This document shows, one piece after another, positions 10,201-59,855 of a stretch of 64,000 nt of DNA. The notes beneath the pieces were generated by a model, which was not told the origin of the DNA, searched no databases, and was given only the letters and a program-made list of their open reading frames with translations. A program made the translations under genes and the position numbers. The stretch's first letter is position 1. Each line of letters begins with the position of its first letter. This stretch comes from Octopus sinensis (taxonomy: Eukaryota), in NCBI RefSeq assembly GCF_006345805.1, contig NC_042997.1, positions 49,352,001 to 49,416,000 on the forward strand, given 5' to 3'.

Positions 10201-10498
10201 ATAATATGTGACAATTATTCGGTTGCCATAATAAAACTGCGCAAACGCGATTGCTATGGGCATTTTTACTCCTTTACTTTTTACTTCCTCCCCTTTGGAT
10301 TTTCCCCCTTATTTAACTGACATTCTAATAGCTCTTTTTGTCTTGATAACAGTCAATTACATAGTAATTTGCCTTCGTTTAACAGTCTTTTTCATAGCAT
10401 ATTTTAATTGCCTCGATAACTGAAGAGATGCCGGTTTCCGCCCCGACATCCGAAACTCGGAGTTTTATTATGGCAACCGAATAAATGTCACATATTAT
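10201..10498. mobile_element. Small fold-back element with hammerhead-like motif (Penelope pLTR-type remnant)
   Basis: 38-bp inverted arms 10201-10238 / 10461-10498. Motif gataa-CTGAAGA-gatgccgg..ccgacatcc-GAAAC-tcgga-GTT-ttatt at 10415-10469. Confidence 0.6.
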
Positions 10499-10681
10499 GT
10501 CACAAACATATATATCTATATCTATCTATCTATCTATCTATCTATCTATCTATCTATCTATCTATCTATCTATCTATCTATCTATCTATCTATCTAGCTG
10601 TCTGTCTGTCTGTCTGTCTCTCTCTCTCCCTCCCTCTCTCTCTCTCTCTCTATATATATATATATATATAGATATATATAT

Positions 10682-12073
10682 GTTAGTTAGTTAGTTAGTT
10701 AGTTAGTTAATTTGGCTCAAAAGCAAATAGCAAGGCCATGTAGGGGGACATGGAGTTAAGTACAGGGTGGTGTTCATGTAAAGAGTTCAGGCCACTTGAG
10801 GTCCAGGGAGGCTTTGAACAAAGCGGTCGTCGGCATCTTCACCATCTCGTCTGGCAGCTTGTTCCACGGATCCGCAACCCGACGGAGGAGAAAGCTCCTC
10901 TCCTTCGATTGAGATGAAATCGTCGCAGGTAGAGCTTTTCGGAATGACCCCGCAGCCGACGCTCCGGAGCAGGAGTGAAGAACAGCTCTTTCGAGAGGTT
11001 ACACTTCCCGCTTATGATGTTGTGGGCGAGAATGAGATCACCACGGCGGCGGCGTTTTTCAAGAGAACAAAGGTCGAGCGTCCTCAGCCTTTCTTCGTAG
11101 GACAAAATTTTGAGACCATGAACCATGCGGGTAGCCAGCCTCTGGACTCTTTCGAGGTGCTGTATGTCTTTGAGGAGATAAGGAGAAGAGGCTTGAATCC
11201 CATACTCCAATATGGGTCTCACCAGCGTGACATAGAGTGGCAGGAATATGGCTGCTGTGAGCATTCCGAATGACCGTCGAATCAAAAACAGAATTCCGAG
11301 CGCTTTGTTGGCAGCATGGACGCACTGGGCCGAAGGCGAAAAGGAGGAATCCACGAAGATACCCAGGTCCTTTACCTGATCGTTCCTCTCCAGCAGCAGA
11401 CGACCCGGCTCGAAATCAAGTTGAGTTGCAGGAGTAGAGCCGACAGGCAGATGACAGCACTTTGACACGTTCAGACACAGGTCCCAATCGTTAGACCACT
11501 TCCAAATTTGGTGGAGGCATCGACGAAGATCCTCTATACTACCGCGAGGAGCAACCAGTTTGATATCGTCGGCAAATAGAAGGGTGTGTTGCGTGAGGTC
11601 GTCGGGCAAGTCATTTATGAAGACTAAGAACAACAAGGGTCCAAGCACTGAACCTTGAGGCACGCCACTGCTCGCACTGGAGACGTCGGACCGCGAACCA
11701 TTAACTTGAACTTGGAAGGAGCGATCTGAGAGGAAGGCACCAACCCATCGTACAATATCCGGATGGAAAAACTATATGCTTGAAGCTTGACAAGTAGTAG
11801 GCGGTGGTTTACCGAGTCAAAAGCTTTGGCAAAGTCCAATAAAACGATGTCAACAGCATCACTATCATCGAGGATGCGCGTCACAATTCTTCCATTACTA
11901 GTAAGTTGGTCAAGCATGATCTCTTCGGCACGAAGCCGTGTTGGGAATCAGTGATCGAGGCTGTGTTTAGGAGGTGGAGCATCATACTTTTCTTAAGGAT
12001 GGTTACGAACATCTTGATGATTATTGATGTAAGGGAAACCGGTCGGTAGTTAAGCGGGTCTTCGCGTCTCCCT
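10682..12073 (-). mobile_element. CR1-clade LINE, 5'-truncated RT fragment (frameshifted)
   Basis: NYRPVSLTS, QHGFVPKRSCLTNL, LDFAKAFDSVNH, PQGSVLGPLLF, LFADDIKL, RPILEY, LERVQRLATRMV..LSYEERL, RRRRGDLI. (TAAC)n 3' tail at 10682-10709. Confidence 0.92.
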
Positions 12074-58536: not shown

Positions 58537-59130
58537 AGCGAGCTGGCAGAATCGTTAGCACGTCGGGCGAAATGCTTTGCGGTGTTTCGGCTGCCGTTAC
58601 GTTGTGAGTTCAAATCCCGCCGAGGTCGACTTTGCCTTTCATCCTTTCGGGGTCGATTGAATTAGTACCAGTTACGCACTGGGGTCAATATAATCGACTT
58701 AATCCGTTTGTCTGTCCTTGTTTGTCCTCTCTGTGTTTAGCCTCTTGTGGGTAGTAAAGAAATAGATATTTCGTCTGCCGTTACGTAGTGAGTTCAAATT
58801 CCGCCGAGGTCGACTTTGCCGTTCATCCTTTCGGGGTGGATAAATTAAGTACCAGTTACGCACTGAGATCGATGTAATCTACTTAAATCCTCTTGTCTGT
58901 CCTTGTTTGTCCCCTCTATGTTTAGCCCCTTGTGGGCAATAAAGAAATAAGAAACGTACTTTGCGGTATTTCGTCTGTCTTATGTTCTGAGTTCAAATTC
59001 CGGCGAGGTCGACTTTGCCTTTCATCCCTTTCAGGGTCGATAAATTAAGTACTAGTTGCGTACTGGGGTCGATCTAATCGACTGGTCCCCTCCCCCAAAA
59101 TTGCGGGTCTTGTGCCTAGAGTAGAAAAGA
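58537..59130 (+). mobile_element. Trimeric SINE family A
   Basis: Head-core-tail1, core-tail1, core-tail2. Internal units start near tatttcgtctg. Confidence 0.88.
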
Positions 59131-59586
59131 ATAACATTAAATACAGGAAAATCATTGTGTGTAAGATTGAATGGCAGCTTAAAAGCAGAATTAGCCATCC
59201 TGCTATCTGTGAACAAAACTGAAGCAAGTTTAGATAAAACTACTACAATAGCAATTTGCTTGAGCGAACGCACTATTTTGGCAAAATTAATTTGAACAAA
59301 AGTATTTTATCTGCTCTAACAGAAGTATCAATGAAAACAGAATGAAACATCACCAATTATATGATCCTTCTATAGTATTTTGTCATCTGGGACTATTGTA
59401 TTATAGGTTTGGCAGCTGATGACGGGAATACATATTTGTTATGTTCGTTTGTGGATTTTTATATTTTAGTATCGTTAATTTGAGTTCTCCTTCATTCTTA
59501 GGAAAGTGGAAAATGTTCGTGGATTTATAGTTTATGGAGATTACTTAGATTGATATTGGTTGTTGCTTTATATATATATATATATA

Positions 59587-59855
59587 ATATTAGGGAATAA
59601 ATCCAAATTTACAGGGAAAAATCAGATTTAGGATTGAATCCAATTTTATAGTAAAATATTATATAATATTAATTCGAGACAAAACCACTATTTTGTAAAT
59701 CAAACAAGGAAAGACTTAATCAATACATAAAAAATATTTATTTATTTATTTATTTATTTATTTACTTTATATTAAAATTTTTTTATGTATTGATTAAGTC
59801 TTTCCTTGTTTGATTTGCAAAATAGTGGTTTTGTCTCGAATTAATATTATATATA
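59587..59855. mobile_element. Fold-back element in (TA)n
   Basis: Inverted arms ~59660-59735 / 59778-59855 around a (TTTA)n spacer. Same family as 25800-25950. Confidence 0.75.

Follow-up and report, generated by a model that had tools for sequence, protein, structure and literature searches.

Hammerhead-bearing fold-back insertions in the Octopus sinensis genome suggest two-ended priming by Penelope-like elements

A 64-kb stretch of the Octopus sinensis genome (NC_042997.1, positions 49,352,001 to 49,416,000; hereafter the window), 36% GC and rich in microsatellites, contains eight fold-back insertions belonging to seven repeat families, which we name A to G. Two of the families are Hydra-clade Penelope-like elements (PLEs; A and D), one is a Neptune-clade PLE (B), one is a 477-bp retrozyme-like unit (E), and three have no open reading frame (ORF; C, F and G); all seven bear a type I hammerhead motif, a predicted self-cleaving ribozyme that in F is decayed. 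From the arrangement of these insertions and of their relatives in the 2.72-Gb genome, which was searched for family copies, we propose that they are probably 5'-truncated insertions of PLEs or their passengers, in which two antisense copies lie head-to-head in (TA)n and one of them is tailed, the PLE endonuclease (EN) opening the TA repeat and both resulting ends priming reverse transcriptase (RT). The architecture is the published insertion structure of EN+ PLEs and no new system (PMC8557442, PMC3846280, PMC4209133); earlier publications describe inverted copies, tails on one side, targeting of TA and hammerheads in PLEs, and what is new is a one-tail rule and a partial coupling of the two breakpoints.

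Polarity, tails and junctions of the insertions

A sequence-only reading of the window had described mutually unrelated fold-back inserts with a common architecture, and our comparison bears this out: all of the named inserts have inverted arms with their 3' ends outward, and the reference sequence of each of the seven families matches only its own elements within the window. That reading had also expected non-random arm polarity across the genome, and the arms do point outward in the great majority of the pairs counted. Among 100 consecutive exact hammerhead matches of family C on the contig that carries the window, there are 35 '-+' and two '+-' pairs within 7 kb, both '+-' adjacencies lying between duplicated fold-backs; for family B, 13 pairs counted by eye among 100 listed matches are outward and none inward. 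The family loci give 94 outward and six inward pairs, five of the six again between duplicated fold-backs (the sixth is at locus L016), and in 800 kb of blind-chosen blocks all seven pairs of families A, B and G are outward.

Two fixed 3' end points characterise each family; they are separated by 36-125 nt, and both lie 3' of the predicted hammerhead cut. The stretch that reaches the distal end point, which we call the tail, is present on exactly one arm in 90 of 93 insertions (A 7/7, B 12/12, C 22/23, D 20/21, E 9/9, G 20/21; the tail lay within the query for family G only). A sequence search with the family C arm plus its tail returned no matches, despite thousands of genomic copies. A run of (TA)4 or longer lies within 45 nt of 175 of the 186 ends, compared with 7.3% of random windows. 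Short reiterations often stand between the 3' end and the TA run, (CT)n in family B and AAAT repeats in family C, and suggest RT stuttering at initiation.

The point at which the two arms meet varies from one insertion to the next. The spacing between paired motifs ranges from 33 to 5986 nt in family C and from 322 to 4496 nt in family D, which implies that the junction is new in each insertion, although a recurrent junction at an AGCT palindrome in family C marks a hot spot. Of 40 insertions, 10 (D 5/20, B 3/13, E 2/7) have a tail-less arm that exceeds its partner by more than 10 nt, a count that omits family G, whose references are fold-backs or another subfamily, and family A, in which four of seven rows have large unexplained gaps. 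The difference exceeds 1.5 kb in L057 and one whole unit in L062, and even at the near-equal junctions of L026, L032 and L154 the tail-less arm is 6-10 nt longer. Most B, D and E junctions show 0-20 nt of overlap or short templated inserts. In five of six families an insertion's two arms resemble each other more closely than they resemble the arms of other insertions (permutation p at most 0.005; for B, p 0.065); some pairs are 99.7% identical, and those of old copies have diverged to 80-86%. Together with partial tandems of the pseudo-long terminal repeat (pLTR), the inverted 5'-truncated copy and the optional tail reproduce the EN+ PLE insertion structure.

Proposed two-ended priming and its alternatives

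We propose that the GIY-YIG endonuclease would cut both strands of (TA)n and that both ends of the break would prime antisense complementary DNA (cDNA). One DNA end would prime at the distal RT start site and so gain a tail, and the other at the proximal site and gain none; as both start sites lie 3' of the hammerhead cut, the template would have to be RNA that is uncut, multimeric or circular. Both cDNAs would stop after tens to thousands of nucleotides, often near the same place, and the truncated products would be end-joined through 0-20 nt of microhomology or short templated inserts. The hammerhead would be carried along as part of the pLTR and probably processes the parent RNA rather than the inserted palindrome. 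One long and one short end in almost every insertion makes coordinated priming of the two break ends likely. The genome-wide data fit what the sequence-only reading had proposed, namely that the inserts derive from PLEs or retrozymes, target TA and join two cDNAs head-to-head; the two-cDNA step is one that we infer. Purified Poseidon PLE has been reported to cut and extend both target strands in vitro and to start reverse transcription at two internal sites bracketing the tail, with hammerhead cleavage unneeded (PMC11167929).

A narrower form of this proposal, which we put forward tentatively and would sooner doubt than assume, is that one dimeric PLE ribonucleoprotein (RNP) seated on the tail of a single RNA primes both (TA)n ends, one site per end, with the second cDNA following and displacing the first. 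Arm similarity and coupled breakpoints favour an origin of both cDNAs from one RNA molecule, though the same signals could come from gene conversion or from one active source locus. If true, the single-RNA model would account jointly for the single tail, the coupling of the breakpoints and the likeness of the arms, the dimeric RNP would be a rule common to Hydra, Neptune and retrozyme-like passengers, and non-coding families such as C, with at least 5,474 hammerhead copies, would spread microsatellite-like DNA and with it new target sites.

Several observations weigh against two-ended priming or narrow its support. In 12 of 37 insertions the two breakpoints are no more than 12 nt apart, where 2.9 such cases are expected (permutation, 0/20,000, leaving out three multi-unit D insertions and the D copy in the window), and this also fits a snap-back origin for a subset. 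Gene conversion between inverted arms could be the source of their similarity. Three of the 93 insertions break the one-tail rule, as do the window copy at 31307 and, in the blind blocks, a single diverged pair of family G; 30 of the 100 family C hammerhead matches are unpaired by exact match, so that many copies have no inverted partner in view; and the loci other than those of family C and the blind blocks are top-scoring matches and no random draw. No ORF was found in families C, F and G, for which a mobilising partner is presumed. The hammerhead is the minimum-energy fold in none of six monomers (z -1.9 to +0.8), as would be expected for dimer- or protein-dependent PLE motifs (PMC4209133, PMC11167929). 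A search for empty alleles with contigs of four sequencing runs over 56400-60400 gave no such joint among the matches listed, with copies of a short interspersed element (SINE) swamping the search, and for the G copy inside a C body the flanks yielded low-complexity sequence only; no empty site was recovered, and the presence of (TA)n before the insertion is presumed.

The snap-back explanation holds that one priming event yields the palindrome, a single strand (an antisense RNA or the first cDNA) turning back on itself to be copied. It has been put forward for head-to-head PLE palindromes (PMC3846280), and it accounts for the one-sided tails, the arm similarity and the excess of near-equal breakpoints. 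It also demands that the tail-less arm be nested within the tailed one, and the 10 of 40 insertions with the longer tail-less arm violate this; the differences in L057 and L062 and the 6-10 nt excess in L026, L032 and L154 contradict it too. We therefore regard self-priming as refuted as the sole route and unlikely as the general one, while it may make some of the near-symmetric cases. Two independent insertions find some support in that TA runs are hot spots and nesting does occur (a G fold-back inside C at L332), but they would leave polarity and tails to chance and put TA between the arms. In L1-style twin priming on one RNA the inverted part lies upstream and does not overlap the rest; in these fold-backs both arms share the same 3' end. 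For either of these origins of the inversion, which the polarity and tail counts contradict, we see very little probability.

It is equally improbable that the insertions are ready-made palindromes akin to miniature inverted-repeat transposable elements (MITEs), moved as units into TA sites by a DNA transposase. Inverted ends in a TA context would suit such elements, and all 20 loci retrieved with the whole 108-bp family C element shared one centre. That query contained the centre and was biased by it; an unbiased pattern search gives variable junctions and overturns the fixed family C junction of the first search. Variable junctions rule the MITE reading out for families A-E and G, the ends are made asymmetric by the tail, the arms are the 3' ends of RT-encoding elements, and neither the fixed symmetric termini nor the fixed internal sequence of a MITE was found; the AGCT-junction form of family C may have spread secondarily. 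Least credible of all is that fold-back long reads produced assembly artefacts, or that hammerhead-like words arose by chance in AT-rich repeats. Arms that are 99.7% identical might be read that way, and the frameshifts in all four near-full-length D copies may reflect base errors, but family-specific asymmetric ends, templated inserts at junctions and old arms at 80-86% identity argue against an artefact, and a public-run contig crosses the 56735 junction without differences (the run may be the assembly's own sample). Chance words are contradicted by the eight descriptor matches in the window against none in shuffled sequence and by compensatory changes, both described below.

How PLEs generate tandem and inverted insertions has been described as undefined (PMC8557442). 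Two-ended priming, as we propose it, concerns a genome with thousands of young, short fold-backs from several clades that follow a rule open to counting: their polarity is outward, each insertion has one tail, either arm can be the longer, and the breakpoints are partly coupled. This rule weighs against self-priming as the only route, predicts directly what the existing in vitro system should show, and makes the open step of PLE integration testable. Inserts of this kind could be misfiled as MITEs or as microRNA (miRNA) hairpins; the best Rfam matches here are miRNA models below threshold.

The seven families and their hammerhead motifs

Our descriptor for type I hammerheads, a core with the 3-8 pair, stems I-III and a UH cleavage site, has eight matches in the window, all within named inserts (A, B twice, C, D twice and E twice), and none in each of five dinucleotide shuffles. 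The 800 kb of blind-chosen blocks give five matches, compared with 0, 1, 0, 0 and 0 in shuffles, so that the window is about 20-fold enriched; from these five matches the genome total may be extrapolated to roughly 5,000-40,000 motifs. The flanks of the fetched loci carry about a dozen additional hammerhead families, most with a palindromic stem III, and the whole repertoire might be of the order of ten thousand motifs, divided among about 20 families. The hammerheads of A, B, C, D and E have the type I features in the window itself, that of G at other loci, and that of F in decayed form only. An Rfam scan of the window placed no hammerhead family among the 150 of 257 matches listed, in which miRNA models came top.

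Stem covariation, which the sequence-only reading had expected among family copies, appears as compensatory changes among related hammerheads. One sister set combines C3-G8 versus U3-A8 with changes in two stem III pairs, a second has four pairs across stems I and III, and family D differs from a sister by one two-sided and three one-sided changes. These sets hold two or three sequences each, pre-selected by the descriptor, and two of the three come from families that flank the loci and do not belong to A-G. Within a perfect fold-back transcript the hammerhead would be sequestered, and most inserted copies are thus likely to be inactive by-products.

The boundaries originally drawn for the inserts had missed the one-sided tails, so that the insert placed at 10201 starts near 10126, that placed at 30820 ends near 31202, and that placed at 56735 starts near 56711. 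The supposed CUGAnGA..GAAA core on the plus strand of each right arm is present at 10420, 31369, 48180, 50252 and 56860 and absent from that position in 30820-31165, where the core is UUGAAAA (+31003/-30979). Its mirror in the left arm is found at 31360, 42894 and 49822, while in the 56735 insert the left-arm core starts with A.

Family A (10126..10500, both strands) is by arm mapping the 3' end of a Hydra-clade PLE, with a minus arm at 10126-10241 that bears a tail of about 75 nt and a tail-less plus arm at 10240-10500. Its hammerhead (10415..10469, plus strand, core 10420) has a near-palindromic stem III and a predicted cut after 10464 (GUU triplet). In five other insertions (L077, L083, L085, L088 and L092) a Hydra-type EN lies upstream of the arm; the motif reading (CxCX5C, no CCHH) covers this EN and part of the RT thumb. 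The Hydra and Neptune assignments of A, D and B were made by motifs.

Family B (30820..31202, both strands) is the 3' end of a Neptune-clade PLE, with the tail (~31166-31202) on the plus arm only. Three long copies (L346-L348), read across frameshifts, show that it ends a Neptune-type ORF with GxKF, DKG, a CX4CxxC linker and a CCHH EN at the C terminus, which are the Neptune features, the linker of that clade being CX2-5CxxC. The plus-strand hammerhead (30996..31035) has a U3-A8 core at 31003, a 2-bp stem II, stem III CCGG and a predicted cut after 31028; its minus-strand mirror has core 30979 and a predicted cut at 30954. The UUGAAAA core has 375 exact genomic matches and its C3-G8 version none, and the U3-A8 core recurs in L004, L009, L025, L069 and block C7, so that the variant is common in the genome. 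A CTGAAGA pair at +30900/-31084 in this family faces inward and does not satisfy the descriptor. As possible partners of families B and G, a Hydra EN in L104/L345 and an RT in L196 were considered and judged to be neighbouring insertions.

Family C (31307..31422, both strands) is non-coding and has no tail on either arm of the window copy. On the minus strand the hammerhead core is at 31360 with a predicted cut at 31322; on the plus strand the reported motif is there at 31369, with a damaged stem II that fails the descriptor. A second family C 3' end with a tail, truncated inside the hammerhead, lies at 31514..31612 on the minus strand. A 29-nt word from the hammerhead has 5,474 exact matches in the genome. 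At other loci the body is non-coding and TG/TA-rich, with inverted arms of up to about 2.4 kb; this low-complexity body is common to different insertions (L331-L338), and the L332 copy hosts the inserted G fold-back. Families such as C may seed microsatellite-like DNA and their own target sites.

Family D (42662..48299, both strands) is a Hydra-clade PLE with a 4553-bp unit, its minus arm at 42662-46525 (tail 42662-42774) and its tail-less plus arm at about 46527-48299. The minus arm encodes a 5'-truncated, frameshifted RT (45380..46527; RVT_1, E 0.018), followed by a CxCX5C linker and, at the C terminus, a GIY-YIG-type EN without CCHH (44518..44779, minus strand). RWK is present and DKT replaces DKG in the frames of L051, L052, L062 and L068; all four near-full-length copies that were read are frameshifted, and Pfam gave a weak RVT_1 match only and none for the EN. 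RWK, DKT, CxCX5C and the lack of CCHH place the family in the Hydra clade as defined in PMC8557442 section 11; at 4553 bp it departs from the Hydra tendency towards elements below 3 kb, which is descriptive and not strict. An Asn-rich low-complexity stretch at 44780-45380, between RT thumb and EN, resembles the N-rich inserts of rotifer Penelope elements (PMC3846280). The plus-strand hammerhead (48175..48263, core 48180) has a long stem II, a palindromic stem III and a predicted cut after 48258, and the mirror on the minus strand has core 42894 and a predicted cut at 42816. In a blind block, L221 (3-2216) holds an additional Hydra-type PLE folded back inside the RT, 44-48% identical to family D.

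Family E (49516..50447, both strands) folds back a retrozyme-like non-coding tandem unit of 477-478 bp with one hammerhead per unit (L147, L155 and L158), a likeness drawn from its DNA. The minus arm exceeds one unit and is tailed, the plus arm is tail-less, and they meet at about 50056-50059. The plus-strand hammerhead (50245..50301, core 50252) has a 7-bp stem I and a predicted cut after 50294; its minus-strand mirror has core 49822 and a predicted cut at 49780.

Family F (56711..56960, both strands, tail on the minus arm) is an old fold-back in which the motif reported at 56860 is present with a partner at -56836, but is decayed and fails the descriptor. Stem III at family F loci reads mostly CATGTG or CACATG and once CACGTG, which is consistent with CpG decay of a palindrome. 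Many copies (L161-L190) begin about 15-20 nt upstream of the hammerhead core, a common start that could reflect either a fixed 5' terminus or frequent truncation at this point.

Family G contributes two fold-backs, at 25786..25948 (tail on the plus arm) and 59583..59858 (tail of about 83 nt on the minus arm). They had been described as having no visible ribozyme, which is true of the window copies, truncated 3' of the motif, but not of the family, in whose copies elsewhere a hammerhead lies upstream of a conserved anchor, at a distance of about 110 nt.

Relation to published elements and other features of the window

Family D (and family A in its EN and linker) shares with Hydra-clade PLEs the C-terminal GIY-YIG EN, RWK, DKT, CxCX5C without CCHH, a canonical hammerhead, insertion into (TA)n and an inverted 5'-truncated copy with the tail often on one end (PMC8557442). 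The differences are that family D measures 4.55 kb with an Asn-rich stretch between RT and EN, where Hydra elements are generally below 3 kb, and that the tails here are 36-125 nt and not 30-40 bp; the passages of that source on insertion structure give no counts of tail state or breakpoints (PMC8557442). Family B resembles Neptune-clade PLEs in GxKF, DKG, the CX4CxxC linker, CCHH and a hammerhead in the pLTR, and differs in that all exact matches counted have a U3-A8 core and a 2-bp stem II. Like the minimal hammerheads of PLEs (PMC4209133), the motifs have a palindromic stem III implying dimers, include the U3-A8 variant, occur by the thousand per genome and form dual opposite-strand pairs such as those reported 100-700 bp apart; unlike them, several families here have 50-70 nt stem II inserts or a U.U pair at the base of stem II, the latter also known from an axolotl family (PMC7229834).

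Family E is like non-LTR retrozymes in being a non-coding tandem with one type I hammerhead per unit (PMC7229834; bioRxiv 10.64898/2026.07.22.740005). It differs in its 477-bp unit and in its PLE insertion signature (head-to-head, one tail, TA target). The mobilisation of animal retrozymes has been attributed to PLEs, and a PLE origin argued for them (bioRxiv 10.64898/2026.07.22.740005). The PAc Poseidon element likewise cuts and extends both strands at AT-rich DNA and has two internal RT starts bracketing the tail; in that study no difference in start site between strands, and no homology to the cleaved DNA, was seen (PMC11167929), whereas the insertions here use one start site per end and several starts lie at TA-rich RNA positions. 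An octopus repeat annotation lists young Penelope families, and the word ribozyme is absent from its main text (PMC13282606). In literature on PLE inversions and structure or cephalopod hammerheads we found neither the one-tail rule nor breakpoint counts stated, although supplements and subscription papers may hold them.

The remaining features of the window are diverse. A 66-bp exact inverted copy links 31435-31500 with 27286-27351, 4 kb away, in otherwise unique DNA; the former copy occupies the interval from the family C fold-back to the following TA run, no other copy occurs among the fetched loci, and it resembles a patch templated locally at a break. Short palindromes at 38397-38459 (63 nt) and 57278-57338 (61 nt) have no TA flanks. 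The window also contains a tandem duplication of about 2.2 kb (15217-17367 and 17458-19648, 97-99% identity) and remnants of other mobile elements: an inverted pair of another repeat (455-999/7259-7805), an RT fragment of a long interspersed element (LINE) on the minus strand at 10839-11771 (RVT_1, E 1e-14), additional LINE-like frames at 51721-55027, and a Cys/His-rich frame at 63085-63576 (minus strand) without a Pfam match. A SINE-like repeat of about 230-350 bp is present in many copies.

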